64,000 nucleotides of DNA from an uncultured delta proteobacterium (GTDB lineage: Bacteria; Myxococcota; Myxococcia; Myxococcales; Anaeromyxobacteraceae), in the NCBI GenBank assembly GCA_963766715.1, contig CAVYBH010000014.1:65994-129993 (forward strand), in the 5' to 3' direction. The position numbers and the translations under genes were made by a program. The notes beneath the pieces are model-generated. The model saw nothing but the letters and a program-made list of their open reading frames with translations, was not told where the DNA came from and made no database searches. This document shows, piece after piece, positions 1,417-15,690 of this stretch; position 1 is the first letter of the stretch, and the number at the start of each line of letters is the position of its first letter.

Positions 1417-1531
1417 GGTTCCTCTTTTGCTCAGGGTGAACACTAGCTCGTCATCCGGACGGGCGGCACGGGGCCACCGGCACGGGACGCGAGTCGTTTG
1501 AACCCGGGACAGGGCAAAAGGGTGCGGCTTT

Positions 1532-1553
1532 TTGTCACTCATTCATGTGACAA
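1532..1553. promoter_or_regulatory. Palindromic operator TTGTCAC-N8-GTGACAA upstream of the cytochrome gene
   Basis: Perfect 7-bp inverted repeat in an AT-rich intergenic patch about 115 bp upstream of the ATG at 1416. Confidence 0.5.
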
Positions 1554-1679
1554 GTGAATCCCGCCGTGATTCCGGCGGCTTGGTTGCAGCTGCAACCAAG
1601 AAGCGCGCGGGCGAGGCGCACATCCGAGCACACGACCAACGGGGGAGGCCGGCGCCAGGCGTCGTCCTGCTCGACCGGA

Positions 1680-2579
1680 TCAGCTGGCCAGCGCCGGGCC
1701 CGGGATGCCCGCCACCCCGGCCAGGTCGCTCTCGACGTCGTCGGCGATCCCGGCGAGCCCGAGCATGGCCTGTGCGAGGTGCGCCGCATGGAAGGGCGCG
1801 CCCGGGAGATCGACCGCGAGGAAGATCGCCCCGTCGGCGAGGACCACGCGGCAGAGCGTCATCCGCGCGTTCATCCGGTGCAGGAGCGCGAGCAGGTCCT
1901 CGTCCACGGACCCGGGCTGGGCGATCCGCACGTAGACCCGCACCACCGTGGGCGCCTCGCGAACCTGGACGAAGCCGATGCGCGAGCCGATCCGGACCGC
2001 CAGGTCGCCGTCCGCGTCGTAGGCGAGGGTGAGGTCGCCCATGGCGTTCCGCGCCGCCGCCAGCACCCGGGCGCGCAGCCGCGCGATCGGCGCCCGCGGC
2101 TTGCGCGGCTTCGGGCGCGCGGGCTCGGGCTCCCGGGGGATGTGGAGCGCCGGAAGGACGAGCGCGTGCCCCTCGGGATCGAAGGCCTTGTAGGTCAGGT
2201 CGCTGGGGTCGGGGATGCGGTGGACGAGCGAGAGGGTCCGGACCGCGATGCGGGCGATCTCCTCGGCGGGGACGGGCCTCGGGAACTCCCGGAAGAAGTT
2301 GGGGGAGCCCTTCGGCACCGGGACGGGCGAGGGCGAGTCGGGCGCGTGGGTGGGGGCCTTCCAGCCGAGCGCCTCGAGCGCCGCCACCTGCTCCTCGGTG
2401 AGCTTCTCGGCCGGCGCCAGGTAGCCGTTGCTCACGGTCTCGGAGAAGACGCCTTCCTCGGGGGAGGCGTTGAACTGGACGAAGCGGTGTCCGGCCCGGG
2501 AGGAGACGATGAGGATCTCGTCCTTCAGCACCGACAGGGCGCTGGCCAGGTCCCGCTCGAATGCGCTCCACTCGCTCAT
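1680..2579 (-). CDS. TY-Chap (T3SS-chaperone/YbjN-like) two-domain protein
   Basis: 299-aa ORF with a GGAGG RBS. The N-terminal domain has FVQF...ETVSNGYL...LEALGWKAP...SPNF and the C-terminal YbjN-like domain has DADGDLAVR...LHRMNAR...GIADDVESDL. Confidence 0.7.
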   Translation of the reverse strand: MSEWSAFERDLASALSVLKDEILIVSSRAGHRFVQFNASPEEGVFSETVSNGYLAPAEKLTEEQVAALEALGWKAPTHAPDSPSPVPVPKGSPNFFREFPRPVPAEEIARIAVRTLSLVHRIPDPSDLTYKAFDPEGHALVLPALHIPREPEPARPKPRKPRAPIARLRARVLAAARNAMGDLTLAYDADGDLAVRIGSRIGFVQVREAPTVVRVYVRIAQPGSVDEDLLALLHRMNARMTLCRVVLADGAIFLAVDLPGAPFHAAHLAQAMLGLAGIADDVESDLAGVAGIPGPALAS

Positions 2580-2597
2580 CTTCCACCTCCCAGGAGA

Positions 2598-2618
2598 AGC
2601 CTACCGGGAGGACGGACA
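2598..2618 (-). promoter_or_regulatory. Putative WYL-activated promoter TGTCCGT-N8-TAGGCT
   Basis: The minus strand reads TGTCCGT cctcccgg TAGGCT immediately upstream of the RBS of the TY-Chap gene. Confidence 0.55.
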
Positions 2619-2630
2619 CGAGCCGGGCGT

Positions 2631-3598
2631 CTACCTGCGCGTACAACCGGGCGAGCTGCGCCACCCGGTCGCCGAGCTGCGCGCGCACGTCGGGCGGGCC
2701 GGCGATCTCCGCCTGGCCACCCCAGCCGAGAACCCAGCCGAGGAGGAAGTTGCCGGGCGCCAGCCGGGCCCGGACCGTGACCGCGCCATCGGCGTCCCGG
2801 GTGGCCCGATCCGGCCAGTGCTCGACCGCGAGGGCGGCCGCCTCGCCGGTGAAGCGGACCGCGACGTCCCGCTCCGCGCCCGACTGGAAGTAGAGCTGGC
2901 GGGTGCGGAAGCGATCGAGGGGCGGTCCCTTGTGGTCGCCGAAGATCCGGGTCCCCAGGACCACCGACGCGATCCGGTCGAGCCGGTAGAGGTGCTCCTC
3001 GCCCTTCGCCACGTTCCAGGCCGCCAGGTACCAGTGGCCGTCCTTGTGGAAGACGGTCCGCGGCTCCAGCGTGCGGGAGGAGAGCGTCCCGGAGGCCTCG
3101 GCGCGGTAGTCGACCGTCACCTCGACACGGCGCTCGATGGCCTCGGCGAGCGAGTCGGCCCACTCGCCGGGCGGGTCGACCTGGAAGTCGACGGCGCGCG
3201 AGAGGCCCCGGGCGGTGTCCCGGAAGGGCTCCGGGACGGCGCGGACCAGCTTCCTCAGGGCGGACGCCACCGTCCTGCCCGGCGCTCCGCTCGAAGGGGC
3301 GAAGCGCGGCGAGCAGCGCCGCCCCCTCGCGGAGGGACAGCGGGGGTGGTGACTCCAGGTGAAGGACGCGATCGACGACGACGCGACCCCCGTCGAGGGA
3401 GACCATCAGGCCGCCCTCCGGCATGGAGGGCCCGAAATCGAGCAGGCCCAGCGTGGTGACGATCTCCTCGATCTCCTTGGCGCTGCGCGCGCCCGTCACC
3501 TGGACGGCCCGCTCCATGGCGAGCCCCTTCGGCCCGGCGCGCCAGGCCTCCGGGATGAGGAGCAGCATCCTGCGGACCTGCGTGACCGGGTTCGTCAT
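2631..3598 (-). CDS. PafC-like HTH-WYL-WCX transcriptional regulator (frameshift ~3270; end approximate)
   Basis: The N-terminus MTNPVTQVRRMLLLIP...PLSLREGAALLAAL is in one frame. The WYL domain (YRAEASG...RTLEP...WYLAAWN...YRLDRI) and the WCX domain (FLLGWVLGWGGQAEIAGPPDVR) are in the next frame. ATGA overlap with the upstream gene. Confidence 0.85.
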
Positions 3599-4621
3599 CC
3601 CGCCGTCTCCCGGGCCAGGCGGCCGGACAGGGCGGCCAGGATCTCCCGCGCCATCTCGCGCCCCTCGGCGGGCTCGAGCAGCTCGGCCTCGGGTCCCCAG
3701 GCGAGCGCCTGCCGCACCAGGCCGCCCAGGTTGCGGACCTCGAGGCGGGCCACCCGGGCGTTGTCCGGCTCGCGCGAGAAGCGGGCCGTGGGCAGGAGCT
3801 TCGGCGCGAGCGCGGCGAGGGACCCCCGGAAGCGAACCAGCGCCATGCGAGGCTCGTGGACGAAGTAGTCCCAGGTCTCCTGGCGCGACCAGCTCCGGAT
3901 GTCGAAGTCGGCCGGGATGGCGTAGTCGGCCTTCTTGGCCTGCGCCGGGGCGACGGCGAGCGACTGCACGCGCTCCAGGTAGAACACGCGGACCGCGTCG
4001 CGCATGTGGCAGTGGCCGGCGAAGATCCAGTGCCCGCGGCGCCAGGCGTATCCGTAGACGTCGACGAGACGCTGGGTGACGGTGCCGTCGCTCTTGCGAT
4101 AGGCCACCTTCACCCGCTTCCGCCGCTCGATCGCGTCGGCCAGCGTGCCGAGCCACTTGCGGAGCGCGGCGGGCTCGGGGACGGACCACTGCTCCCTCGA
4201 GGAGCGCGGCCTTCGGCGGGAGCCCCTTCGCCCCCACCACGAGCTTGCGCAGCGCCGTCTCCAGGTCGTCGGAAAGGGGATGGTCGTGGGTGCGGAGCGC
4301 GGCCAGGCCGGCCATCCAGACCACCGAGGCCTCGTCGGGGGCGAAGTCGAGCCGGGGAAGGGTGCAGGAGGTGGCCTCCACGAGGTAGGCGCCCTCGCGC
4401 CCCTCCTCCTCGAGGAACTGCACCGGGATGCCCAGCTTCCGGAGGTCCTGCTTGTCGCGGGTCCACTTCTTCTCCCGCGCCTCGTCCTTGCCCGCGTAAT
4501 CGTCCGGGAAGGCCTCGTAGACCTGCTGCCGCGTCACCGGCTCGCCGTGGTTCGAGAGCCAGGTCGCGAGCTGGAGGAGTCGCGCCTCGGCCGCCGTTCC
4601 ACGCTTTCCGGTCGATGGCAT
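3595..4621 (-). CDS. PafB-like HTH-WYL-WCX transcriptional regulator (frameshift ~4185)
   Basis: ARLLQLATWL...VTRQQV...Y...EAREKKWTRDKQDLRKLGIPV matches the PafB-type winged HTH. WYL domain is YRKSDG...RLVDVYG...WIFAGHC...FYLERV and WCX domain is LVRQALAWGPEAELLEPAEGR. Confidence 0.85.
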
Positions 4622-4630
4622 GAGCGAGGC

Positions 4631-4652
4631 AGTGTAGCTCACGGTGCGTGAG
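4631..4652 (-). promoter_or_regulatory. -10 box TACACT with adjacent palindrome CTCACG-CAC-CGTGAG before the pafB-like gene
   Basis: TACACT (4636-4631) lies 9 nt before ATG 4621, and the inverted repeat spans 4638-4652. Confidence 0.4.
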
Positions 4653-5198
4653 ACGGCGAGTTCAGCTCGGCCCCTTCACCGAGTGACAGGACCAGTCCCG
4701 GCGAGGGTCGGGGAGCCCGGTGGTGCGCAGGTGGCAGAGCACCGTGCCCCGGGCCGGCTGCTCGCGGAGCGCCGAGGGGAAGAGCGCGGTCGCGATTCGC
4801 GCGAGCGGCGGGCGCAGCCGGACGGTGACGCGGACGGGTGGCTCGGGGCTGCCCGAGTCGAGGAACCCCGCGGTGGAGAAGAACCGGAGGTCGAAGCCGG
4901 GCGGGGCGAGCCCCCGCCGGGCCCGCGCCCGCATCACCCTCACCCGGAGGACGCGGTCGAGGCGGAAGAGCCGGAAGGCCTTCCTGCGGTGGCAGAAGGC
5001 CGCCAGGTGCCAGACGCCCTCCCGCCAGGCGAGCCCCAGGACGTCCACCTCCCGGTCGGTCCGGATGCCGCCACCGTCCTCGTACCGGAACCACGCCCGG
5101 CGTCCCTCGGCGAGGGCGCGGGCGAGGGGAAGGAGGGCCTTCCGGGCGGGGCGGGGCTGGGTCACGGCATGGAGAGCCCCCGGGGGCTCGGAGGCCAT
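4639..5198 (-). CDS. Stand-alone WYL-WCX protein lacking an N-terminal HTH (frameshift ~4705)
   Basis: FRYEDGGG...REVDVLGLAWREGVWHLAAFCHRRKAFRLFRLDRV is a canonical WYL domain. The WCX-like end GLVLSLGEGAEL lies in the shifted frame, with a stop at 4639. Confidence 0.8.
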
Positions 5199-5217
5199 CT
5201 TGGCCGGCCCACGGACA
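5197..5217 (-). promoter_or_regulatory. Putative WYL-activated promoter TGTCCGT-N8-CAAGAT
   Basis: Same motif and spacing, in the 44-bp gap before the stand-alone WYL gene. The hexamer overlaps the annotated ATG, so the true start may be a downstream GTG. Confidence 0.4.
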
Positions 5218-5242
5218 CCGGCCGCCCGCCAGGCGCCGAGGC

Positions 5243-6856
5243 TCAGCCGGGCAGGCCGGGCCAGGAGCCGGTGGCCCCGGCCGGACCCACCACGCGCGCA
5301 GCCGTGAGCGCGCGGGTGAGGGCGATGTGCATGCGGGTTCCGAAGCGCTCCCGGTCCGCCGCTCCCACGTCCGCGACCAGGATGACCGGGCGCTCCAGCC
5401 CCTTCCAGCGCAGGAAGGTGTCGGCGACCAGCCGGTCCTCCATGCCGTCGGACCCGGCGCCCACGAAGGCGTGCCGGCCCAGCGCCGGGGCGTGGTGGAC
5501 GGCGTCCTTCGCGTTCTGGCCGCGCAGCGACACGACGCCCACGTCGCCGGGCTTCACGCCTTGTGAATAGAGCCGGTCGATCTCCGCCCCCACGCAGGCG
5601 GCCACCCGGGCCGGGTCGTCGCAGGGGACGAGCCCGAGCGTCCCGTCGAGGACCGCCTTGCGGACGAGCGCCTCGTCGGAGGGCTCGCCCAGGTAGCGGC
5701 GCGCCAGCGCCTCGATGCCCGGAGGCGAGCGCCGGCCCCGGCCGAGCGGGAAGGGAGCGGGGAAGAGGCCGGCCGGGGGCTCGCGGTCCGGCCAGAAGGC
5801 CTGCCCGGTGTCGCGGAAGGCCCAGAGCCGCTTCCCTTCGGCCAGGCGCCCCACCAGGTACCAGGCCTCGAAGTCGAAGTCCTGCGCCTCGTCGACGACA
5901 ATCGAGTCCCAGCGCGGCGTGCAGACGTCGGCGGCGCGCTCGCAGAACTTCCGCCAGGTCGAGGTGTCGGAGAAGTCGGCGCCGCCGTCCGGGCCGTCCA
6001 CCTTCTCGGCCTCCGACTTGGCCAGTCCACCCACGGTGTGGACCTCAATCCCGCTGCCGTCGAGCCGCGCGCGCAGCCAGCGCCCGAGGGGCTGGGTGAA
6101 GCAGAGGAGCAGCGGCTTCCGCCCCGCCGCGAGCTCCCGGCGGGCGGCCTCCACCGCGAGCAGCGTCTTGCCCGTGCCGGCCCCGCCCTGCACCAGCGCC
6201 CGCTCCTGCCCGGAGAGCAGGTCGAGGGTGGCGAGCTGGATCTCGTCGAGGTCGAGGTGCGCGCGGCGCGCCTCCTCCACCCGGTGGCCGAGGGACAGGG
6301 AGGGCGCCCAGGTCTCGCCCCACATCTGGTGGAGCCGCTTCGTCCACTCCCCGCGCCCGCCGTCGGCCGGGGGCAGCGCGCGCTCGATCACGGCCGGGAG
6401 GTACTGGTCCAGCCAGGAGAGGTGGTTCTTGCCCAGCACGACGCCGCGGAGGTCGTCCTGCCACGGCTGCTCGTCGAACTCGACGTCGGGAAAGGCCACC
6501 GCCGCGCCCCAGGCCGGAGGCCAGCAGTTCCACTCGCCGAGCCGATCGCGAAGGCGCCGCACGAAGCCGTTTCCCTGGTCGAGCGGGGCCTTCTCGAGCT
6601 GCTTCCCGTTCGAGTACCAGAGGCCGCCGCGCTGCTCGATCTGCCCGCCCTTCACCTCGAGCACGAGCAGGCCGCGCTCCGGGTGGGCCAGGACGAAGTC
6701 GCCCTCTCCCAGGAAGTTCTTGCCGTCGCGGATGCGCAGGGAGTGCCAGGCGGTCCAGCCGGCGGGGAGCCCGGCCTTGAGCCGGGACCAGACGGTCCGC
6801 TCCCCGTGGGACGACGCGGGCCGGGGAGCGTCGGACGGCCAGAGCTTTCCGGGCAT
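5243..6856 (-). CDS. NERD nuclease fused to an SF1 (UvrD-like C-terminus) helicase/ATPase
   Basis: NERD motif HSLRI...EGDFVLAHPERGLLVLEVKGG, Walker A GGAGTGKT, Walker B VVDEAQD, motif V WKGLERP and motif VI HIALTRA. Confidence 0.85.
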   Translation of the reverse strand: MPGKLWPSDAPRPASSHGERTVWSRLKAGLPAGWTAWHSLRIRDGKNFLGEGDFVLAHPERGLLVLEVKGGQIEQRGGLWYSNGKQLEKAPLDQGNGFVRRLRDRLGEWNCWPPAWGAAVAFPDVEFDEQPWQDDLRGVVLGKNHLSWLDQYLPAVIERALPPADGGRGEWTKRLHQMWGETWAPSLSLGHRVEEARRAHLDLDEIQLATLDLLSGQERALVQGGAGTGKTLLAVEAARRELAAGRKPLLLCFTQPLGRWLRARLDGSGIEVHTVGGLAKSEAEKVDGPDGGADFSDTSTWRKFCERAADVCTPRWDSIVVDEAQDFDFEAWYLVGRLAEGKRLWAFRDTGQAFWPDREPPAGLFPAPFPLGRGRRSPPGIEALARRYLGEPSDEALVRKAVLDGTLGLVPCDDPARVAACVGAEIDRLYSQGVKPGDVGVVSLRGQNAKDAVHHAPALGRHAFVGAGSDGMEDRLVADTFLRWKGLERPVILVADVGAADRERFGTRMHIALTRALTAARVVGPAGATGSWPGLPG

Positions 6857-6886
6857 CCGCGCAGCCTGACACGCGGGAGCCGTCCG

Positions 6887-7441
6887 TCAACCGCGCGACC
6901 GCCCCACGTGGGCCGCGAACCGCTCGACGAAGCGCTCCTGGTCCGGGACCTCGATGGCGCCCGGCCGGGCCCGGCGAACCGCCTCGATGGCCGTCGACGG
7001 CGCCTTTCCCGTCGCGACCAGGCAGCAGGCGGCGATGGTCCCGCTGCGCCCCAGCCCTCCCAGGCAGTGGACGACCACGGTCTCCGCGCGCGCCAGGCTC
7101 CGCAGGATCCGGGTGACGAGGCGGGACGTCGCCTCCAGCGAGGAGGGGACGGAGACGTCGGGGATGGGGAACCAGAAGCTCGCGATGCCGGCCCGACGGA
7201 GCACGCCCCGGAGGCCGTCGATGGCGAAGCGCTCCATCTCGAGCTCCTCCATGAGGGTGACGACCACGTCCGCTCCGTGGGCGTCGCGCAGGAGGGCCAC
7301 GTCCATGCGGAGGAGGTTCTCCGACGGGTCGCGGCCGGGGCGCCACCGACCCGGCGCCTGCGTGAGCCCCAGCCGTCCCGGCAGCCCGTGGTCGCTCGAG
7401 GCGAGGAAGTCGACCCGCGCCTCGCGGGGGTCGGCCGCCAT
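6887..7441 (-). CDS. CDKN3-like / protein-tyrosine-phosphatase-fold phosphatase
   Basis: GRLGLTQAPG...VVTLMEELE...FPIPDVSVP...VVVHCLGGLGRSG contains the CX5R loop, followed by VRRARPGAIE. TGATG overlap with the upstream protease gene. Confidence 0.88.
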   Translation of the reverse strand: MAADPREARVDFLASSDHGLPGRLGLTQAPGRWRPGRDPSENLLRMDVALLRDAHGADVVVTLMEELEMERFAIDGLRGVLRRAGIASFWFPIPDVSVPSSLEATSRLVTRILRSLARAETVVVHCLGGLGRSGTIAACCLVATGKAPSTAIEAVRRARPGAIEVPDQERFVERFAAHVGRSRG

Positions 7442-8121
7442 CAGCAGACCTCCAGGACGACGACCCCCAGCTGCTCGAGGAGGTCGGTGCCGACGATGGC
7501 CTCCACGCCGAGCAGGCGCATCGCCATCGAGACCGACGAGGGGGGCTCGGCGAAGTCGACCGTCACCTCCCGGCCCCGGAAGACGGCCCGGCCGCGGCGA
7601 AGCGGCACCTCGAAGTCCCCCTCGCCGTGGAAGAAGTCGCGCGCCCGGCCGGCCACGGGGAACCCGCTGGCCTGCGCGGCGGACAGGTACGACACCGGAG
7701 CGCCCGTGTCGACGACCGCGGTCACCGGGGCGCCCCAGATGAGGAGGTCCTCGATGATGAACCGCTGCCGGACGGCGCCGGGCACGTGGGTGGCGAAGCC
7801 CGGCGCGAGGTCGATGCGGAGGAGACGCGAGGTGAAGTCGAGGACCAGCCGGTGGCCCCAGAGCAGGTCGGTGCCGAGCAGCAGGTCGAAGTCGAAGTCC
7901 GGCGCCACGCCGGGAAGCTGCCGGATGTGCTCCACCGCGGTGTCGACGGTGAACCCGAGGATGCCCGGGGAGACCCGGTGCTCGTCGCCGAGGAGCCGCA
8001 TCCCGTCGCACCGCCCGAAGGTGACCGACGAGCCCGTGTCGAGCAGCGCCCTCCGGTCCCGGATGCGGGTGACGACGTGTCCGGCGACCAGGTCGAAGGG
8101 AGCGAGGAGAGGGCCAGGCAT
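7441..8121 (-). CDS. Two-lobed retropepsin-like aspartic protease (no signal peptide)
   Basis: Two D-T-G motifs (LLDTGSS, VVDTGAP), each followed by a LLGTDLL/IVGTDLL psi-loop motif. Confidence 0.8.
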   Translation of the reverse strand: MPGPLLAPFDLVAGHVVTRIRDRRALLDTGSSVTFGRCDGMRLLGDEHRVSPGILGFTVDTAVEHIRQLPGVAPDFDFDLLLGTDLLWGHRLVLDFTSRLLRIDLAPGFATHVPGAVRQRFIIEDLLIWGAPVTAVVDTGAPVSYLSAAQASGFPVAGRARDFFHGEGDFEVPLRRGRAVFRGREVTVDFAEPPSSVSMAMRLLGVEAIVGTDLLEQLGVVVLEVC

Positions 8122-8130
8122 TACACGGCG

Positions 8131-8170
8131 AGTGTCGAGCGTGGACGGACATGGGCAGGAACCCGTCCGT
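8131..8170 (-). promoter_or_regulatory. Putative WYL-activated promoter TGTCCGT-N8-GACACT within the inverted repeat ACGGAC-N14-GTCCGT
   Basis: Motif at 8151-8131, with the hexamer 9 nt before ATG 8121. The inverted repeat arms are 8145-8150 and 8165-8170. Confidence 0.5.
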
Positions 8171-8223
8171 GCCCTCACAGGGTGTAGACGAGCCACTGCA
8201 GCCAATCTGACGCCCCGTGAGGG

Positions 8224-11200
8224 TCAGACCCAGCGCATTCCCCCGTCGGCCGTGAAGAGCAGCCCGCATCTCACCGCGCCTGCCCTTGCGACGCCCAGCT
8301 CGACCAGGATTCGCCCGTAGCTCCGCACCTGCTCGACGTAGGCGGGGTGCGTTTCGCGGACGTCGCCGGTGGGCGGGCTGTCGGTCTTGAAGTCCACCAC
8401 GCTCACCTGTCCATCCCGGGCGCCCAAGAGGTCGACGTAACCCTGGAGCAGCAGTCCGTCCCGACCCAGCGCGACGGGGTACTCCAGCCGGAGGTCTTCC
8501 CCTGGGACGCGCCGCATCCCTGCTGCCTCGAGCGCGGAGAGGGCCCGGGTCACGTCGTCGGCCGCCTCGGCGTGGCGCTCGGCCAGCCCGGTCTCCCGCA
8601 CCACCCGCGCGACCGCCCGGGCGGCGTCCAGTCCCGGCTCCCGGAGGCAGAGGCCGATCGCCCGGTGGACGGTGTCGCCGAAGACGCGGCCGAAGCGGCT
8701 CTCCCGCAGCCGGGGGCGCTCTCCGGCCCGCCCCTCGCCCTCGGACTCGGCGTCGACCCGCTCGTGGGCCTCGGTGGAGACACCCTTCGGCACGAAGCGC
8801 GGCGTCCCCGATCCGGCCGACGCCGAATCCCATTCCTTCCCGACTCGCCTCGACGGCTCGGCGACCTCCCGGGGGAGCCGTGCCGGTGGAGCCTCCACGT
8901 CCGTGGCCCAGGCGGGAGCGGCGTCGTCGGTCCACTCCTCGAGGACGTCGAGGGCAGGGGAGGAAGTTCCGACGAGGGCCGGGGTCACGAGCCCGGACTT
9001 GCCCGTGGTGACCACCGGCAGGACGAGGAGCTCGCGGGCCCGCGTCGCCGCGACGTAGACGAGGCGCCTGCGCTCGGCGGCCGCGTAGGCCTCCTCGCGC
9101 CCGAGGAAGCCGCTCTCCTCGGGCTCCTGCCAGGAGAGGCCGTCGATGTCGAGTGCCCACGCACTCCCGGTGCGCTCCACGAACCAGTGGGTCTGTCCCT
9201 TGCGCGGGGCGAAGCGGGCGTGCGCGTCCCACCAGGCCACGACCGGGAACTCGAGCCCCTTGGCCTGGTGGATCGACATGATCTGCACGGCCTCGGCGCC
9301 CACCGGGCGTGGGGGATCGAGGCCGACCGGATCCAGGGCCCAGGCCCGCAGGTGTGAGGTGACGCCGTCGAAGTCGAGCCCCTCCGCTGCGGCGATCCGT
9401 TCCAGCTCGAAGCACAGCTCACGCAGGCGCTCCAGCCGCTGCGAGCCGTTCGGTCCGAAGGCGACGGCGCGCCCGATTCCGGTGCGCTCGAGGAGGTCGC
9501 GCGCGGTCTCCCCGGGAGTCCGCTCGAACCGGCGCCGGCGCAGCTCCCCGACCAGCGCCTGGGCGGCGCGGGCCCGCTCGATGCCGGGGTCTCCCGGTCC
9601 GTCCCCGGCCGCCCCGGCCCGGACCAGGTCGGCCAGGTCCACGGCGAAGAAAGGCTCGCGGAGGAGCGCGGCCGTGGCGACGCCGTCCCGCGCGTCGGCG
9701 AGGGCCCGCAGGGCGAGCAGGAACTGCCGGTGAATAGGGTCCTGGAGGAAGAGGCTCGCTCCGCGGGCCGTCCACGGAACCCCGAGCCGGTCGAGCTCGT
9801 CGGTGAGCAGGCCCAGGTTGGTGGTGACGTGGGCGAGGATGGCGACGTCCCCGTAGCGGAATCCCCGCGCCTCGAGCGTCCGGAGCCACGTGGCGAGCAC
9901 GGTGGCCTCCCTCGCCCGGTCGGGCCCCACCTTCTCGTCCTCGGTCGAGAAGGGCAGGACCACGACGCAGGCCGTCCGATCGCCTTCGCGCCCGGCGTCG
10001 AGGGGCCGATTCACGACCGTGCCCGCGTCCGGATCGAAGTCGCCCTTCCCTGGCTGGGCGCGCCCCAGGATGTCGTCGAACCGGGCGTTCAGGTGGGCGA
10101 TGAGGGCGGGCTGTGAGCGGAAGTTGGCCGTGAGGGCGACCGCCAGGTGGCTGCCCTTCAGGACGATGGCGCGAACCGCGTCGTACACGGAGATGTCGGC
10201 CCGACGGAACCGGTAGATCGACTGCTTGGGGTCGCCGACCAGGGTCAGCTTCCCGGGGGCGAGCCGGACGTCGCCCCACTGCCCGGCCGCGGCGCCCTCT
10301 TCGCAGAGGTAGAGGACGATCTCGGCCTGCAGGGGATCGGTGTCCTGGAACTCGTCCACGAACACGTGGTCGAAGAGCGACTGCATCTCCAGCCGGACCT
10401 CCCGGCTGGACCGGAGCAGGTCCCGCAGGCACAGGAGGAGGTCGACCTGGTCCACCGCGCGGTGACGCGCCTTCACCTTCTCGTAGGTCGCCACCACGGC
10501 GGGGAACGTGCGGACGAGCCGCGTGGCCATCCAGCGGTGGAGGGGACCGGTGATGCGTTCCTCGTAGGTGGGCTCGCTGCCCGGCTTGCCCCAGGCCTTC
10601 CAGGCCGCCCATCCGTCCGCGTCGTCCGGGAAGTCCCTGCGCATCTGGAGATCCGCGGGGCGCGGCGCCGACCGGACGAACCGGGCCACCTCCCGGTACA
10701 GGGTGACGGGGTCGGACGCGGTGACGAGGGGCTCGAGTTGGCGCACGGCGCGCCTCATCCAGTCCGGACCCTTCCCCGTGCCGGTGGACGCGCGGGCCAG
10801 CGCGACGAATTCCTCGATGGCCTGGCCGACGCGCGCGGCCGGGAACGGCGCCGGCGGCCCGTCGGCCGGGGGCACGTCGCGGTGCAGGATGAAGCCATCG
10901 AAGAGCGCGTCCAGGCCGTGACGATCCCTCCAGGCGGTCTCCTTCGTCTCGGCGCGGACCTCGGCGGCGAGGGCGATCCGGATGTACTCCTGGGCCTCCT
11001 TCGCCCGCTCGGGTGGACAGGTGGTCCCGGCCAGCTCCTCGACGAGCCGACCGGCCTCGGAGGCCTGGAGCAGGATCTCGAAGGTCTCGTAGGTGAGCGC
11101 GGAGGCGTCCTCCACGATCTCGTAGGAGGGGCTCAGCCGGGCCTCGACCGGGCGCCGCCGGAGCAGCCGGTCCGCGAAGCCGTGGATCGTCCCGATGAAG

Positions 11201-11523
11201 GCGGTGTCCGCGGCGGAGAGCGCGAGCGCGAGCCGCTCCCGCCGGCGCGTCGAGGGCGCCCCGGCCAGCTCGGAGAGGAGCTTCTCGCGCACGCGGAGCT
11301 TCAGCTCGCCGGCGGCCTTGCGGGTGAAGGTCACCGCCGCGATGCGCTCGAGCGGGACGGCGTCCTGCGAGTCGTCGGACGGCGCCACCATCTCGACGAG
11401 CCGCGCGACGAGGAGCGTGGTCTTCCCGGTTCCCGCACCGGCGTCCACCAGGACGTTCACGCCGCGTGACTGGATGGCGGCGTCGCGCTGCGCCTGGTCC
11501 GGAGCCGGCCGTCGAGCGCTCAT
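8224..11523 (-). CDS. addA: AddA/UvrD-like SF1 helicase with C-terminal RecB-family nuclease
   Basis: Helicase motifs AGAGTGKT, TFTRKAAGEL, VDEFQDT, VGDPKQSIYRFRRAD, NFRS, SIHQAKGLEF and ERRRLVYVAATRA. Nuclease motifs G-x-x-VH, GYVDLL, VVDFKT and Q-x-x-x-Y. Own start ATG 11523 after GAGGAGG. Confidence 0.9.
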   Translation of the reverse strand: MSARRPAPDQAQRDAAIQSRGVNVLVDAGAGTGKTTLLVARLVEMVAPSDDSQDAVPLERIAAVTFTRKAAGELKLRVREKLLSELAGAPSTRRRERLALALSAADTAFIGTIHGFADRLLRRRPVEARLSPSYEIVEDASALTYETFEILLQASEAGRLVEELAGTTCPPERAKEAQEYIRIALAAEVRAETKETAWRDRHGLDALFDGFILHRDVPPADGPPAPFPAARVGQAIEEFVALARASTGTGKGPDWMRRAVRQLEPLVTASDPVTLYREVARFVRSAPRPADLQMRRDFPDDADGWAAWKAWGKPGSEPTYEERITGPLHRWMATRLVRTFPAVVATYEKVKARHRAVDQVDLLLCLRDLLRSSREVRLEMQSLFDHVFVDEFQDTDPLQAEIVLYLCEEGAAAGQWGDVRLAPGKLTLVGDPKQSIYRFRRADISVYDAVRAIVLKGSHLAVALTANFRSQPALIAHLNARFDDILGRAQPGKGDFDPDAGTVVNRPLDAGREGDRTACVVVLPFSTEDEKVGPDRAREATVLATWLRTLEARGFRYGDVAILAHVTTNLGLLTDELDRLGVPWTARGASLFLQDPIHRQFLLALRALADARDGVATAALLREPFFAVDLADLVRAGAAGDGPGDPGIERARAAQALVGELRRRRFERTPGETARDLLERTGIGRAVAFGPNGSQRLERLRELCFELERIAAAEGLDFDGVTSHLRAWALDPVGLDPPRPVGAEAVQIMSIHQAKGLEFPVVAWWDAHARFAPRKGQTHWFVERTGSAWALDIDGLSWQEPEESGFLGREEAYAAAERRRLVYVAATRARELLVLPVVTTGKSGLVTPALVGTSSPALDVLEEWTDDAAPAWATDVEAPPARLPREVAEPSRRVGKEWDSASAGSGTPRFVPKGVSTEAHERVDAESEGEGRAGERPRLRESRFGRVFGDTVHRAIGLCLREPGLDAARAVARVVRETGLAERHAEAADDVTRALSALEAAGMRRVPGEDLRLEYPVALGRDGLLLQGYVDLLGARDGQVSVVDFKTDSPPTGDVRETHPAYVEQVRSYGRILVELGVARAGAVRCGLLFTADGGMRWV

Positions 11524-14500
11524 TCCTCCTCCTCCTTCGCCTGCTTCGTCGCGAAGAAGGCCGCCACGGCTCCCTCCGCCTGGTCCGCGCCGGCGGACGC
11601 CCCTCTCGCGGACCGGCGCGCCGCAGACCGGAGCGAAGCAGCAGTAGTCGCAGTCCTCCGCCCGCGAGGTGGGCGGGAAGGCGTGCTCGGAGAGGAGCCC
11701 GGCCGCGACGGAGAGCCAGCCCTTCGCCGCCGCGTCGAGCTGGGCGTGGTCGCCGCGGAACGCCCGCTCCGAAGGGCCGCTGGCGTAGACGTAGGCGGCC
11801 TGGACCTTCCTCGGGAGGCCCCATTCCGCGGCCATCTTCCTCGCCACCAGGCCGTACAGGCCGAGCTGGACGTCGCGCACCGGGGTCGGGCCCGCCTCCT
11901 CGCCCGTGCGCGGGTGCTCCCGGCCGGTCTTGAGGTCGCGGACCAGCGCGTGATCGCCCTCGACGTCGAGCCGGTCGATGTAGCCGCGGACGTGGAGGGG
12001 CGTCCCGCCCGCGTCGAGGACCACGCCGGAGAAGGCGCGCTCCACGCCCACGAAGCGGGAGAGCCGGAGGCCCGCGTCGTAGTCGAGGAAGGCCTCCAGG
12101 TCGCGCACCAGCCTGGCCCGCTCCTTGTCGAGGACTCCCTTGCCCACGAGTGGATACCCGCCGCAGAGCCTGTCGAAGGAGTCGTCGGCGAACGTCCTCA
12201 GGACCCTCTTCCAGTGGGCCAGGTCCTTCTTCCCGGAGACGAAGGCCTCGCCGTGCGCGGCGTAGAAGTGCTCGGCCGCCTCGTGGAACATGCTGCCGTA
12301 GGAGAGCGCATCGATCTCGCGGATCGAGGGCGCACCGTCCGGTTCCTTCCAGCCCAGCACCCGCTCGCGGAGGAAGCGAAGCGGACAGGTGAGGAGCCGC
12401 TCCAGAGCCGACGCCGAGATCGGGTGCTCCGGGTCGAGCCCAGGGAAGCCGGGGAGCGGGCCGTCGTCCCCCAGGATCCCGTCGGCCGGCCCGAGATCGT
12501 CCCGGCTGCGCAGCGAGAGGATGGAGCCGATGTCGAGGCATGCCGCGCCGACCCAGGCAGGAGGCACCTCGCCCGTCGCGGCCGCCCGGTCGAGCCACTG
12601 GGCCTGCGAGACCGGGTTCGCGCTCCGGAACGCCAGCGCGGCCTCGCGAGCGGGCTCGAAGGACGTCCGCTGGAGCGAGGCCAGGTCGGGTATCGCCTCC
12701 AGCCGCTGCGCGTCGGGGCGCCCCAGCGCGGCGCCCACCTCGACCAGCAGGGACGAGATCTCCCGGTCGCTCCGCTCGGCGTCCGCGTGCGGGACCGAGA
12801 GCGCGATTCGCGCGGTGGCTCCGCGCAGCGCCCGATCGAACGAGTGGAGCTGGGCCAGGACCCGGTCGCCCGAGACGGGGACCAGGATCCCCGCCTCTCC
12901 CCGCATGCGGTCGGGCAGTACCGGGTCCTCCCGGACCGCCGAGGGGAGCGCCCCCTCGCAGAGGCCGACGATGCGGACGGCCTGGAACTCGAGGCCCGCC
13001 GCGGATGCGACGGTGCCCACATAGACCGCCGGCTGGCCGAAGCGGACGGTGCCGAGGCGGAGCGACCCGAGTTGCTCCTCGATGAAGGACATCGCGCCGG
13101 CGCCGCGGACCGTCGAGGCGACCGCGTCGGTCGTGACGCGCTCCAGGGTCTCGCCGAGCAACGTCCGGACGGCCGCGCCCTTCCCGGGGAGGCGCACCCA
13201 GGTCTCCAGGAAGCCGGTGAGCGCCGGGGCGATCTCGGCGAGGGGGCGCGCCTCGACGACCTGCCTCGCCAGGCACACCAGCGCGTCGATCGCAGGGCGC
13301 GCCGCACGGAGCGAGTCGAGGAGGGGTCGCAACTTCCACCCCTCCCGTGCCTCGGCCTCCTCGTCCAGCTCCTCGACCATCCTCGCCAGCTGGGCCTCGC
13401 GGGCCGCGACCCGCGGCGACCATTCGAGGGCGCCCTCGGGACGGGCGGAGCTCCCGCCCGCGGTGCCCACCCCCCACGCGATGGCGAGGGCGGTGCCGGG
13501 CGCGAGGCGGTCGCGGTCGCCGACCTTCACCTCCAGGCAGGGCAGGAGGTCGCTCATCGACCCGGCTGGAAGGAAGGCACCGAGTGCACGGACGACAGCC
13601 AGGACGCGCGCGCCCGCCGCGGTGGCCACGAGCGGGAGTCCCCCGGCGACGTGGACCGGGAACTCGCCGGCCGGCCAGGGCAAGCGCGAGATGCGGCTCG
13701 CGAGCATGGGAGCGAGGGGGTGCTGGTGCGGGACGAGGACCGCCACGTCCTCGAGCGGCGTCCTGTGCGAGAGGACCTCCCGCGACACCCACTCGGCCGC
13801 GGCCTCCACCTCGGTCTCGACCCCTGCGTACTCCTCGAGGGTCACGGTGCCGTCGGCTCCCCGGCTGCGCGGCCGGGAAGGGTCGGCGAGCGTCTGGGGG
13901 GCGCGAAGATGTACCGGCACAGGAGGTCGCGCTCCGTGGCGGTGGCGCCCGGCGGAGGTGCCTCCTCGAGGGCGGCCCGGGCCTCCGGGCCGAAGAGGGC
14001 CTCGAGGCGCTCGAGGTGGCGGGGGCGGATGGGGCGCGCGGCGAAGAGCGCGAAGCGTGGCCCCGGGCAGGGAACGCAGGAACCGGGCCTCGGCGGCCGT
14101 TTCACGTCCCGTCACGGTGACCAACGTCGGGCCCGTCGCCGGGCGAGCACCGCCCCGCAGGGCCTCGGCGGCCAGGAGGAAGATGCGCGCGCCGGTGGCG
14201 CTCCGGCCCGCGGCGGCGTCGAGGCGGCGCCAGAGCAGGCTCACGTCGCGCCATTGCGAAGACGTCCGGGGGAGCCCGTCGGGAGAGAGCCCCGCGCCTT
14301 CGAGGTCGCCGATGGCGGCGGCGAAGGCGTCCGGCCAGCCCTGCGTGTTTCGCAGGAGCTGCAGGTCGAAGTACTCCAGGGGAAGCTCATCCTGGAAGAG
14401 CCCGAGGAGGCGGGCCGCCCGGAGCGACTCCTCGCCCGGAAGGAGATCGCTGCCGGCCTCCGCCAGGATCTCCTGGGCCAGGGTCAGCGGGCCGACGAAG

Positions 14501-14679
14501 CGGGTGCCCGCCAGGGCGGCCGGGCGTCCGGAGCGGAGGAGGGCCCGGCGGAGGGAGTGGGCGTGGCGCTCGGAGGGGACGAGAGCCGTCCGGATGGGAA
14601 GGGCTCCCGACGCGGCGAGCGCGGCCACGGCCGAGGCCTGGTCGGAGAGCGAGTGGAAGATTGACCAGGAAGTGCCCAT
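11520..14679 (-). CDS. addB: AddB-like protein: inactive helicase-like N-terminus plus PD-(D/E)XK nuclease with 4Fe-4S Cys staple (frameshifts ~14050, ~13900, ~11600)
   Basis: ISASALERLLTCPLRF, GYIDRLD, RDLKTG, QLGLY and CDYCCFAPVC are present. The corrected C-terminus FFATKQAKEEEE* overlaps the addA start (ATGA). Confidence 0.85.
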
Positions 14680-14689
14680 ACGGGCACGC

Positions 14690-14710
14690 ACTCTACCGGT
14701 CGGACGGACT
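14690..14710 (-). promoter_or_regulatory. Putative WYL-activated promoter AGTCCGT-N8-TAGAGT
   Basis: Lies in the 30-bp gap before addB, with the hexamer 10 nt before ATG 14679. Confidence 0.5.
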
Positions 14711-14946
14711 CACGTCCCGCATGCGTCGCGGGCCATCGCCACCGCCGTCCGGGCCGTGCCCGGATCCTGCGGGTCGAGCGACGAGATTGACTGGAGCGCA
14801 CGCCGCAGCTCGAGCAAGGCCTGCCGGGCAAGGTCGGGCTCGCGAACCGGGTGCGCCGCCGCGTGGCCCGCTCGCTGGGTTCCGAGCGATCTCTCCAGCG
14901 CGGCGAGCCTCTCGAAGACGAAGAGCGGGTCTGGGCGATTCCTCAC
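14710..14946 (-). CDS. Small helical hypothetical protein (~78 aa)
   Basis: The GTG start overlaps the stop of the PilZ-like gene (GTGA). Sequence VRNRPDPLFVFERLAALER...AMARDACGT*. Confidence 0.5.
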   Translation of the reverse strand: MRNRPDPLFVFERLAALERSLGTQRAGHAAAHPVREPDLARQALLELRRALQSISSLDPQDPGTARTAVAMARDACGT

Positions 14947-15512
14947 CCCCCGACCTCCACCCCGGTGACCAGGGTGCGGGCCGAGGAGAGCGCCGCGAGG
15001 TAGCGGTCCTCCTCCGGAGCGGGGACGAGGTCCTCCGGCGACGCGCGCACCGCGGCGAGGAAGTGATCCCGTGCGTCGAGGACGTGGCGCAGGGCGTCGT
15101 AGATTTCCTGCGCGCGCGCGACCCGGGAGTCCGCGCGGAAAGGCTCCGGCGCCGGAGCGATTGCCGGGGCCAGGGTCGGGTGCGGCGGCCGCAGGACGAC
15201 CTCCAGCCGGGCCAGATCGGAGAGGTCCATGCGAGCGATGCCGAGGCCGACGTCGAACCGGGCCGGGCTCCCCTCCGGGAGCGCGTCGCACCAGCTCACC
15301 CGGACGACGGCACTCACCGTCGAGTGGTCGGGGAGGAGCACGTCGACCTCCAGGACGTCGCCCCGGCGGAATGGCTGGTCGGTGTAGGTGAGGAAGCCCT
15401 TGTCGGGGTCGGGGACGCCTTCGCGCAGGAGGCCGTGCGCGAGCCTCGAGGTCGGCCGGTGCAGCATGGGCGCGAAGATGCGAGGGAAGCGGGGGTGTGC
15501 GGTCGGTGCCAT
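14943..15512 (-). CDS. Degenerate PilZ-like domain protein with helical C-terminus
   Basis: PRFPRI...FRRGDVLEVDVLLPD...VVRVSWC...ARFDVGL resembles myxobacterial PilZ barrels. The D/N-x-S-x-x-G motif is not conserved. Confidence 0.55.
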   Translation of the reverse strand: MAPTAHPRFPRIFAPMLHRPTSRLAHGLLREGVPDPDKGFLTYTDQPFRRGDVLEVDVLLPDHSTVSAVVRVSWCDALPEGSPARFDVGLGIARMDLSDLARLEVVLRPPHPTLAPAIAPAPEPFRADSRVARAQEIYDALRHVLDARDHFLAAVRASPEDLVPAPEEDRYLAALSSARTLVTGVEVGG

Positions 15513-15690
15513 CGGCTTGCAGCGTTAGCAAGCTCCACACCAGGGAATGACCCCACCAGTCTTGGGGATTTCCGGCCCGGGGCCGAGGGGTCGAACTCGC
15601 CCCTGGGTGGCCGCCGATCCTGCCGGAACCTTTGAGATTCTCTCATGTCTGGCCTTGTACGGACGGCGGGGGCAAGCGATCCTCCGCCGC

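Follow-up and report, generated by a model that had tools for sequence, protein, structure and literature searches.

The 64-kb window, by which we mean the whole stretch of DNA analysed, carries at 1680-14679 nine co-oriented minus-strand genes, and this locus raises the question of whether they form one self-contained defence system or belong to a more widely scattered gene set. The initial annotation took the former position, proposing an undescribed, closed nine-gene circuit under WYL control. Our analysis makes it fairly probable that the window holds a single compact cluster of an accessory, dispersed conflict regulon, which would be activated by a second PafBC-type pair (PafBC-2) via sigma-factor adaptation. 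Judged from its gene content, the scattered set probably serves anti-phage defense and damage control. The family of the genome, a myxobacterial one, is probably Anaeromyxobacteraceae, going by the best named hit (L046). The genes, the two PafBC clades, the two motifs and their positions, and the distributions given below were computed directly.

The genes of the cluster

11520..14679, minus strand: addB-2, AddB-like subunit (about 1050 aa) with a RecB-family nuclease and four Fe-S cysteines
8224..11523, minus strand: addA-2, SF1 helicase-nuclease of 1099 aa; ATGA overlap with addB
7441..8121, minus strand: single-chain, two-lobed retropepsin-like aspartic protease of 226 aa; two DTG motifs
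6887..7441, minus strand: CX5R phosphatase of the rhodanese-phosphatase superfamily (PTP-SAK / Tc-R-P), 184 aa; motif HCLGGLGRS
5243..6856, minus strand: 537-aa fusion of NERD nuclease and SF1-like helicase, not preceded by its own class-2 site
4639..5165, minus strand: WYL1, WYL(-WCX) without HTH; both ligand arginines present; frameshift error near 4700
3595..4621, minus strand: pafB-2, HTH-WYL-WCX; recognition helix EKKWTRDK; frameshift error near 4189
2633..3598, minus strand: pafC-2, HTH_PafC-WYL-WCX; overlaps pafB-2 by ATGA; two frameshift errors, near 3280 and 2636
1680..2579, minus strand: TY-Chap3 + TY-Chap1, two-domain predicted peptide-binding chaperone of 299 aa

The nine genes were delimited by GC-frame analysis and Pfam (UvrD with PDDEXK_1, PTP-SAK/Tc-R-P, NERD with AAA_19, WYL three times, HTH_PafC, WCX, and TY-Chap3 with TY-Chap1; the Asp protease domain scored below the cut-off). 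The spacings along the cluster are -4, 102, -1, 30, 77, 17, -4 and 53 bp, and therefore the three start/stop overlaps of the initial annotation are correct, as are its tight gaps and common orientation. Its statement that the catalytic motifs are intact also holds at the level of sequence motifs; all nine genes carry theirs. In the raw sequence addB and addA are joined as a single ORF of 2155 aa, and pafB, pafC and the first WYL gene are broken. Both anomalies are frameshift errors: short-read contigs, from runs that may come from the same population, lack a single base at 14053, 4189, 2636/7 and 4696-4709. A genuine AddB-AddA fusion is rejected, the orthologues being separate intact genes (AddB of 1051 aa in L019, L020, L021 and L023); what looks in L018 like a fusion of peptidase M16 and PDDEXK is likewise two genes joined by a frameshift. 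An assembly chimera does not explain the gene order: six junctions (upstream/addB, addA/protease, protease/PTP, PTP/NERD, NERD/WYL1 and pafC/TY-Chap) are spanned by the short-read contigs. A foreign island was rejected on composition, the GC content of the cluster (0.73-0.75) equaling that of its surroundings.

The two Add subunits have the features of AddAB: adjacent genes, an SF1 motor with a nuclease in AddA, and a nuclease with Fe-S cysteines in AddB. AddA-2 shows the motifs AGAGTGKT, DEFQD, GDPKQSIYRFR, HQAKGLE and YVAATRA, with the nuclease motifs GYVDL/DFKT/QVRSY. AddB-2 (frameshift errors near 14053/13895 and 11605) has GYIDRLD/DLKTG/QLGLY, and two fragments examined contained no Walker A motif. 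Both fall below the NCBIfam equivalog cut-offs (addA_Gpos, addA_alphas, addB_Gpos; 178.6 vs 707.65 and 158.2 vs 860.75 bits), as do fragments of the core AddBA. In a tree of 41 AddA sequences trimmed to 880 residues, AddA-2 belongs to a patchy clade set apart from core AddA (clade support 0.98), which reaches Kofleriaceae, Binatia and Eisenbacteria records; a search for AddA-2 on plasmids gave no match at E 1e-60. We rejected the possibility that the window holds the sole housekeeping addAB. A separate core addBA, for which the initial annotation had advised a check, lies at C12 of the same genome, and core addBA is found in 45 of the 59 family genomes that are at least 90% complete, compared with 27/91 for the addA-2 clade of the window.

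Both DTG motifs are invariant in 7/7 orthologues of the protease, whose predicted fold reaches pLDDT 89 with a 7-row alignment (30 from the single sequence); the best matches, at E about 1e-6, are tethered retroviral protease dimers. The NERD-helicase, present in 26/91 genomes, has the motifs EGDF/EVKGG, GGAGTGKT and DEAQD with a variant motif III (RDTGQ). Close PTP orthologues occur in 31/91 genomes, and TY-Chap matches in 14/91, full-length in seven, every one of the window's genus.

Two PafBC clades and two promoter-like motifs

The first WYL gene encodes a WYL domain and a weak WCX domain with no HTH. The other two are adjacent pafB and pafC genes, each HTH-WYL-WCX, as in PafBC, and their best solved relatives are 6sj9, 9fnd and 7p5x. 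A separate pafBC (PafBC-1) lies elsewhere in the same genome, and the PafB tree resolves two clades with support 100/100. Among the family genomes PafBC-1 is near-universal and PafBC-2 is patchy, PafC-2 being found in 56 and absent from 35 of those searched. In family f2 only the PafB-1 type is seen (137/140 genomes with a match, none at the PafB-2 level). The recognition helices differ. PafB-1 has R46 and E49 in 16/16 sequences and both R46 and R50 in 16/16, while PafB-2 has K46 in 21/22 (window included) and T/S49 in 22/22; the window protein has K at R46, T at E49 and R50 retained, and so lacks the R46-R50 combination. The first ssDNA-binding arginine is Tyr in 21/23 PafB-2 and His in 15/16 PafB-1, its replacements being Tyr/Leu/Phe in the former clade and His/Gln in the latter, and because of these substitutions ssDNA sensing is not to be assumed. 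Both arginines are present in PafC-2 and WYL1. The WYL loop does not support a different ligand for PafB-2, as PafB-1 is also without the first arginine. The best explanation of the two clades is an old duplication that produced two PafBC-type WYL heterodimers.

The class-2 motif, 21 bp long (tGTCCGTCC-N6-TA-N3-T) and similar to the mycobacterial PafBC promoter of 22 bp, stands ahead of four window genes and their orthologues, and the class-1 motif, 22 bp long (TGTC(G/A)GAC-N8-TA-N3-T), stands ahead of core repair genes. The class-2 sites of the window are as follows.

14690..14710, minus strand: class-2 site of addB (AGTCCGTCC-N6-TAGAGT), 10 bp upstream of the addB start; score 17.7
8131..8151, minus strand: weaker class-2 site of the protease gene (GACACT replacing TANNNT), 9 bp before the start; score 12.3
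5197..5217, minus strand: class-2 site of WYL1; score 16.8, with conserved counterparts in L218 and L219
2598..2618, minus strand: strong class-2 site of TY-Chap, 18 bp before the start; score 26.9

These four are the matches within the window, each ending at most 18 bp from the start of a cluster gene. Their significance comes from position and conservation only, since by count alone the loose pattern is not significant (13/100 shuffles of the window reach four). The matrix was derived from 8 sites of the window genome and then used to scan other genomes; the score of the addB site is from a matrix built only on other genomes. The addB site predicts, on sequence, a near-leaderless transcript. 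The -10 hexamer of the WYL1 site overlaps the ATG at 5198, and for this reason translation more probably begins from the GTG at 5165. The pafB-2 gene has a -10-like hexamer of its own at 4631-4636. The WYL control envisaged initially gains support from this motif, of putative PafBC promoter type, upstream of addB, the protease gene, WYL1 and TY-Chap.

Distribution of the motifs and of the genes

In other genomes the class-2 motif precedes addB at 19/32 orthologue loci (sites scoring at least 13; about four loci are duplicates), TY-Chap at 7/8, vWA at 7/10 and ADP-ribosylglycohydrolase (ARG) at 6/14, against 0/38 for addA and 28/815 for unassigned genes. It precedes the NERD-helicase at 0/27, pafB-2 at 0/22, PTP at 1/10 and, again with a score of at least 13, the protease at 0/6 orthologues. 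The strict pattern gives 82 sites in 40/92 family genomes (reversed control, 1). Sites occur in 35/56 genomes with PafC-2 compared with 4/35 without, counts that include kin and are not independent; among near-complete genomes the figures are 29/39 and 2/15. Part of this association reflects linkage, the targets and the regulator sharing a variable region, and 21/56 PafC-2 genomes have no strict site. The class-1 motif is independent of PafC-2 (45/56 genomes with, 27/35 without). Outside the window's family multiple class-2 sites were found only in G271, G291 and G347, and PafB-2 is present in all three (split over two contigs in G291); the follow-up search did not find it in G348, G349 or G294. 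The motif predicted the PafBC-2 clade in another family. In G347 about 22 kb hold five sites together with ARG, a calcineurin phosphatase, an REase-ARP, pafBC-2, TPR and addBA-2.

The best explanation of these sequence patterns is that PafBC-1 goes with the 22-bp promoter and PafBC-2 with the 21-bp promoter. The coupling of half-site to spacing is a preference and not strict: TGTCCGTSC has 82 short and 22 long spacings, TGTCRGAC 27 short and 161 long, and the swapped patterns exceed their controls (22 vs 3 and 27 vs 13). This looseness is compatible with an unlikely but substantial alternative, that class-2 genes form a further layer of the usual DNA-damage response, whose promoters either PafBC pair or mixed heterodimers could read, and that they serve back-up repair and clean-up (resection and healing of ends, ADP-ribose removal) rather than anti-phage defense. 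Such a layer would also account for class-2 target types that include SbcDC, RecC (one genome) and a third AddAB type, for the site retained before addB in three genomes of 96% completeness with no PafBC-2 hit (G044, G072, G073), and for the lack of any PADLOC system matched as a whole. It agrees poorly with the window genome itself, where class-1 sites but no class-2 site were scored before core repair genes (most of their names being our presumption from N-terminal sequences), with class-2 sites at background in the PafBC-1-only family f2 (six single sites in 105 genomes), and with the patchy, shuffled distribution of the cluster genes.

The conserved synteny expected by the initial annotation was not found: the full nine-gene order occurs in 0/24 orthologous family loci and 0/22 close metagenome loci, many of them cut by contig ends (G013, G014 and G025 were not counted, their addA running into the edge of the contig). 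Yet most adjacent pairs recur, often beside ARG, vWA and other parts of ARG-centered systems. The recurring sub-orders are addA-WYL1-pafB-pafC (L024, L127), protease-WYL1-pafB-pafC (L218, L219), pafC-TY-Chap (L209), PTP-TY-Chap (L208, L210, L211), addA-NERD (L033, L035) and NERD-protease (L025). ARG lies within about 10 kb of addA-2 in 5/24 loci; distant addA loci rarely have ARG, WYL or NERD, a control that is weak because the queries were myxobacterial. Every cluster gene is also found without other members. PafC-2 hits are missing from 9/27 addA-2 genomes, and addBA-2 shows no association with PafBC-2 across genomes (18/56 vs 9/35). The class-2 motif also precedes genes outside the window in the same genome, among them a vWA gene at C15:73269. 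The single closed circuit, for which the tight spacing, three overlaps and recurring sub-orders speak, is accordingly quite improbable and as a conserved unit largely refuted; its genes occur apart, the NERD-helicase has no site at its orthologues, and three internal promoter-like sites split the cluster into units. Accessory genes piling up by chance at an insertion hotspot, with no connection between them, would produce the patchy distribution and variable neighbors. Such a pile-up would hardly produce a common upstream motif, recurring partners in two families and the absence of a GC anomaly, and we regard it as very improbable indeed.

In the dispersed regulon that we favor, by analogy with mycobacterial PafBC, PafBC-2 would bind a fragment of nucleic acid, most probably ssDNA that arises through damage or through phage replication, and would adapt the housekeeping sigma factor to the -26/-10 class-2 promoters, with activation as the result. 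From gene content, the induced set may process or destroy DNA ends (AddBA-2, SbcDC, the third AddAB type, RecC), reverse or clear ADP-ribose and phosphate adducts (ARG, ARPP, NADAR and the CX5R, HD, HAD and calcineurin phosphatases), and handle damaged proteins (TY-Chap/YbjN, vWA, AAA, TPR, the protease). AddBA-2 would yield further ssDNA as positive feedback, and the HTH-less WYL1 could, speculatively, soak up ligand. More tentatively, and with the odds rather against it, the re-specified helix and spacing may give one housekeeping RNA polymerase two insulated programs, core repair under PafBC-1 and an immune regulon under PafBC-2. PafBC-2 would then perhaps sense a phage-derived signal other than plain ssDNA, tuned by the HTH-less WYL protein, and the immune regulon would strip phage ADP-ribose off host molecules and degrade DNA ends via the second AddAB.

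Comparison with known systems

PADLOC, proposed as a check in the initial annotation, found no named system that fits among the 22 proteins scanned; it gave only domain-level single-protein hits (GajB, RTasHel, RTasNERD-Hel, C3a187, WYL), whose partners are absent from this set. The claim of an undescribed system survives in part. A combination of WYL protein, rhodanese-phosphatase, TY-Chap and nuclease/helicase was already predicted in the ARG-centered anti-ADP-ribosylation system of Iyer et al. 2022 (PMC9503650, section 3.8), in which the anti-ADP-ribosylation role is itself a prediction; the adjacent ARG of that system is absent here. Genes preceded by or neighboring the motif include ARG, ARPP-1, NADAR, vWA, HD, SbcDC and TY-Chap1/3, matching the component list of that section. 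Shared with it are the WYL regulator (WYL or Nudix in that system) and a coupled phosphatase of the rhodanese, HD, HAD or calcineurin kind, which is PTP-SAK/Tc-R-P in the window, while relatives have HD, HAD_SAK_2 or metallophosphoesterase. Chaperones (TY-Chap/vWA, with SseB as a further type in that system) and REases together with helicases are also common to both, and related loci add ARPP, NADAR and Macro-fold partners. The differences are that no ARG lies at the core of the neighborhood in or near the window, that the set is dispersed and joined by a promoter motif, that it has AddBA, SbcDC and a retropepsin in addition, and that the regulator resembles, by sequence, a two-subunit activator and not a one-component repressor. 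The window genome's own ARG link is missing because both of its ARG genes lie on other contigs and lack a class-2 site. ARG-centered systems have no coupled ADP-ribosyltransferase or sirtuin; the window genes include neither, and SIR2 genes lie near class-2 sites in L255 and L340. The supplementary file of PMC9503650 has no mention of Anaeromyxobacter or Myxococc.

Section 3.8 of PMC9503650 proposes the WYL factors of such systems as negative regulators, in line with a reading in which the pair represses ARG-type genes; a variant of this reading takes the motif for a promoter that an alternative sigma factor recognizes. We consider this improbable: the motif is bipartite and non-palindromic with TANNNT at the PafBC -26/-10 distance, a scan of 1400-15600 for sigma-70 -35/-10 promoters and terminators gave nothing above shuffles, and the proteins are a PafB/PafC-type pair whose PafBC-2 clade the motif tracks. 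Should the regulon activated by PafBC-2 be correct, the predicted ARG-centered system would gain a named regulator and a promoter signature that lists its members per genome, the regulatory sign would be activation, opposite to the published proposal, and sigma adaptation would extend outside Actinobacteria and be re-specifiable through paralogue divergence. The 22-bp motif bears on a Myxococcus question, the induction of the LexA-independent damage response and of ddiA.

Compared with AddAB/AdnAB, the addB-addA order with overlap, the one SF1 motor, the two RecB-family nucleases and the AddB Fe-S staple are the same; the window pair differs as an accessory clade beside a core AddBA and scores under every NCBIfam equivalog cut-off. 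PafBC of mycobacteria and its sigma adaptation are described in PMC8635444, PMC11804915 and PMC6789036 (PDB 6sj9, 7p5x, 9fnd). According to passages of PMC8635444, PafB R46/R50 read the GTC triplet within the consensus tGTCgg(N10)tA(N3)T, and a passage of PMC8223512 places the end-resection enzymes RecBCD and AdnAB in the regulon. Common to both are, as far as these passages go, an adjacent HTH-WYL-WCX pair and a regulon with end-resection enzymes, together with a non-palindromic GTC-containing upstream element and a TANNNT hexamer with no -35. The window pair differs in being a second, accessory paralogue beside the canonical one, with R46 changed to K, E49 to T/S and the first WYL arginine gone, an extra HTH-less WYL gene, and accessory conflict genes as targets instead of core repair; its sites fail the mycobacterial consensus, the window motif TGTCCGTCC being a 21-bp variant shorter by one base. 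Myxococcus xanthus has a pafBC operon and a PafBC-binding sequence in 24 promoters, as given in passages of Sheng et al. 2021 (PMC9705874); this PafBC most likely equals PafBC-1 here, and those passages describe no second pair or motif. Literature searches, most subscription papers aside, turned up neither a second myxobacterial PafBC nor the 21-bp motif. DdaA of Moraxellaceae, in a passage of PMC12392091, is likewise a WYL activator that joins DNA-damage and anti-phage genes; it is one regulator for both sets, binds about 50 bp upstream and is probably not a case of sigma adaptation, whereas here two paralogues seem to split the sets. New here is the 21-bp promoter-like motif that tracks the PafBC clade of the window.

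Gene content and conservation of the cluster

GC-frame analysis and Pfam agreed on nine co-oriented genes, in an assembly that is 85% complete and has a GC content of 72%. The window corresponds to C14:65994-129993 and, judging by its best named match (L046), probably belongs to the Anaeromyxobacteraceae.

Window 1680-14679, minus strand: addB, addA, two-DTG retropepsin, CX5R phosphatase, NERD-helicase, a WYL protein without HTH, pafB-like, pafC-like and TY-Chap3+1 genes (GC-frame analysis, Pfam)

Their spacings and three overlaps were as described in the initial annotation, and the catalytic motifs were found intact. AddB holds four Fe-S cysteines, and a search for a Walker A motif in it found none; the protease has the predicted fold of a single-chain, two-lobed retropepsin (structure prediction). 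Several frameshifts in the cluster are, as judged from the reads and relatives, errors: the orthologues are intact, and at four of these positions a single base is missing from the short-read contigs. Six junctions of the cluster are spanned by short-read contigs. Two small minus-strand ORFs upstream (14710-15512) had no Pfam match and were absent near the orthologous loci. Downstream, positions 1-1542 cover the N-terminal portion of a secreted protein that has a carboxypeptidase-regulatory domain, CXXCH motifs and repeats rich in cysteine; its gene is apparently unrelated to the cluster.

The window's own genome (G000) holds a further addBA on contig C12 and a further pafBC on C8; the addBA of the window is thus not the housekeeping copy. 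AddA of the C12 type was present in 45/59 well-assembled genomes of the family, and the window's AddA clade in 27/91. The latter forms its own branch in the tree (support 0.98), which takes in Kofleriaceae, Binatia and Eisenbacteria records. A third AddAB-like pair (L206:132-3419, L260:8246-14226, L264:7691-13737) branches with the core AddA and adjoins pafBC-2 genes, the WYL pair of the window's clade, with a promoter-like class-2 site (described below) in L264. The three genomes that carry it (G005, G006, G075) had no match to the window's addA (addA-2), and therefore this pair may be an interchangeable replacement.

Of the 27 orthologous loci, we compared 24. Wherever the contig permitted, addB and addA lay side by side. 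Near addA-2 we found the NERD-helicase in seven loci, the WYL pair or a remnant in four and the protease in one; the phosphatase and the window-type TY-Chap were each found in 0/24. The full nine-gene order occurred in 0/24 orthologous family loci and 0/22 close metagenome loci, so that the fixed unit proposed initially is not borne out, and a closed nine-gene system is in our estimate quite improbable. What recurs is a set of neighbours: addA-WYL1-pafB-pafC, protease-WYL1-pafB-pafC, pafC-TY-Chap, PTP-TY-Chap, addA-NERD and NERD-protease. ARG lay near addA-2 in 5/24 loci, all five among the seven bearing NERD, and was accompanied there by vWA, double AAA, HD, HAD_SAK_2 and YbjN genes. These partners are the components that Iyer et al. 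2022 (PMC9503650) listed for their predicted ARG-centred system.

A 21-bp promoter-like motif

The element WGTCCGT...A...T is common to the sequences upstream of addB, the protease, WYL1 and TY-Chap. These are its only four matches in the 64-kb window, and each ends at most 18 bp from the start; the count is not significant by itself, as 13 of 100 shuffles reach four. In a forward test, a matrix built from eight sites of G000 and applied to other genomes scored sites upstream of addB in 19/32 loci (including about four duplicates), TY-Chap in 7/8, vWA in 7/10, ARG in 6/14 and TPR in 4/16, against a background of 28/815 unassigned genes; addA (0/38), NERD (0/27) and pafB-2 (0/22) had none. In the reverse test, G000 was scanned with a matrix drawn from 47 sites outside it, which gave five sites versus none in the reversed control at a score of at least 20, and 16 versus 14 at 13.5. 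The top sites of G000 precede TY-Chap, vWA, an HD gene and sbcD; one more stands about 270 bp ahead of a TPR-like gene. The consensus of this class-2 site, tGTCCGTCC-N6-TA-N3-T, spans 21 bp; that of mycobacterial PafBC, tGTCgg(N10)tA(N3)T, spans 22 bp and belongs to a -26/-10 hybrid promoter read via R46 and R50 of PafB (available text of PMC8635444).

No class-2 site precedes the two ARG genes of G000, which lie on contigs other than the window's; the window itself has no ARG. A second class-2 cluster lies about 50 kb away on the window's contig (L246, C14:8539-15881). Divergent sites there stand before sbcD-sbcC and a pair of HD genes; a further, strong site precedes a TPR-like gene, behind which come metK and a 173-aa gene without assigned function. 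A TPR gene or class-2 site adjoins metK also in L028, L207 and L340. At L247 (C15:73269), a strong class-2 site precedes a vWA gene that has ku and ligD some 4 kb away. In four relatives the region upstream of the protease carries a different element; a conserved TGTCAC...CGTC-type sequence replaces the class-2 site there (L218-L221), and resembles an ECF-sigma promoter. A class-2 site of genome G291 (L342:5926-6849) has a Csm6-like HEPN gene for a neighbour, with CRISPR-type genes alongside, and the pafBC-2 of G271 (L323) is likewise near CRISPR-type genes.

Two PafBC clades and two motifs

The PafB tree separates two clades with supports of 100/100. PafB-1, of the near-universal clade, has R46 and E49 in 16/16 sequences; PafB-2 has K46 in 21/22 and T or S49 in 22/22. 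The 21-bp motif gave 82 sites in 40/92 family genomes versus one in the control. It tracked PafC-2 (35/56 genomes with PafC-2 versus 4/35 without; among near-complete genomes 29/39 versus 2/15), an association inflated by kinship and linkage. The 22-bp form, TGTC(G/A)GAC-N8-TA-N3-T, gave 161 sites in 73/92 genomes versus nine, independently of PafC-2 (45/56 with, 27/35 without). Spacing follows the half-site, not strictly: the half-site of the 21-bp form occurred with 82 short and 22 long spacings, that of the 22-bp form with 27 and 161.

Among 300 genomes of the phylum, PafB-2 was confined to the window's family and family f4 (G271, and G291 as a split gene only). The motif stood at background in family f2 (six single sites in 105 genomes); beyond the window's family, multiple sites across the order occurred only in G271, G291 and G347. 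PafB-2 was therefore predicted in G347, and the search found two copies there and the split copy in G291, with none in three other f4 genomes. G239 counts as one genome in the 300-genome tally and the order-wide scan, and no claim depends solely on it. One contig of G347 carries five class-2 sites with REase-ARP, calcineurin phosphatase, ARG, pafC-pafB, TPR and addB-addA of the window's clade; a further site precedes recC.

The genes that follow the 22-bp motif in G000 we take, from their N-termini, to be pcrA/uvrD, ssb, dnaB, recA, ruvB and, weakly, priA; the core addB is preceded by it as well (score 11.2). A conserved protein of about 150 aa (starting MAVKVMVA), with no Pfam or NCBIfam match, repeatedly follows the motif (L271, L275, L277, L281, L282, L285 and G000 C1:164645) and is a candidate new damage-response gene. 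In two f2 genomes (G187, G200), the 22-bp motif, of the PafBC-1 type, ends 100 bp (L298:1038-1400) and 98 bp (L301) before an XRE regulator gene of 121-124 aa, whose start codon would lie at about +94/95 reckoned from the motif's -10. The start codon of ddiA is at +94, its induction being left unexplained in the available text of PMC12288472. As a lead, this regulator is a candidate ddiA that PafBC-1 may activate. G000 also carries two near-identical, tmRNA-like 5' ends under sigma-70-type promoters, one on contig C2 (C2:280722) and the other on C18 (C18:40995).

Proposed regulation and comparison with known systems

We consider it probable that PafBC-2 activates the 21-bp promoters; to judge by the gene content, the simplest reading is that these would drive an inducible programme of anti-phage defence and damage control. 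By analogy with mycobacterial PafBC, ligand-bound PafBC-2 would adapt the housekeeping sigma factor to these promoters, and the transcripts so induced would have short leaders. Those of the window would cover addBA, protease-PTP (with NERD reached by read-through), WYL1 (with pafBC) and TY-Chap. Their products may process or destroy DNA ends, remove ADP-ribose and terminal phosphates, and handle damaged proteins.

Several observations speak against PafBC-2 control. Across genomes, addA-2 and PafC-2 showed no association (18/56 with PafC-2, 9/35 without), and NERD is associated with PafC-2 (23/56 versus 3/35) although it lacks the motif. A second repair tier without a defence role, or shared control, is an unlikely but appreciable alternative. 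Three genomes (G044, G072, G073) keep a class-2 site before addB and had no PafBC-2 match; these could be relict sites, cross-talk or missing sequence. The ARG genes of G000, devoid of class-2 sites, and the differing element upstream of the protease in four relatives also weigh against such control. The first WYL arginine, which matters for ssDNA binding (available text of PMC11804915), is absent in both PafB clades. A model in which a repressor or another sigma factor acts at the 21-bp sites we consider improbable, and a chance accumulation of unrelated accessory genes exceedingly so.

PafBC of M. xanthus has been reported, with binding sequences in 24 promoters (PMC9705874), and DdaA sets an example of a WYL protein that activates defence genes (PMC12392091), both as given in the available texts. 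In the literature covered, which was not complete, neither a second PafBC in myxobacteria nor the 21-bp motif was described, nor any connection of this motif with ARG and AddAB genes. PafBC-2 may be likened to PafBC in its working mode but departs from it in two defining respects: it lacks R46, and the motif that tracks it is not the 22-bp one. The initial description of the system as undescribed holds insofar as no named PADLOC system fits the cluster; it has to be qualified in that the putative regulon resembles the predicted ARG-centred system, as far as the available text of PMC9503650 describes it, differing in G000 by the lack of an adjacent ARG.
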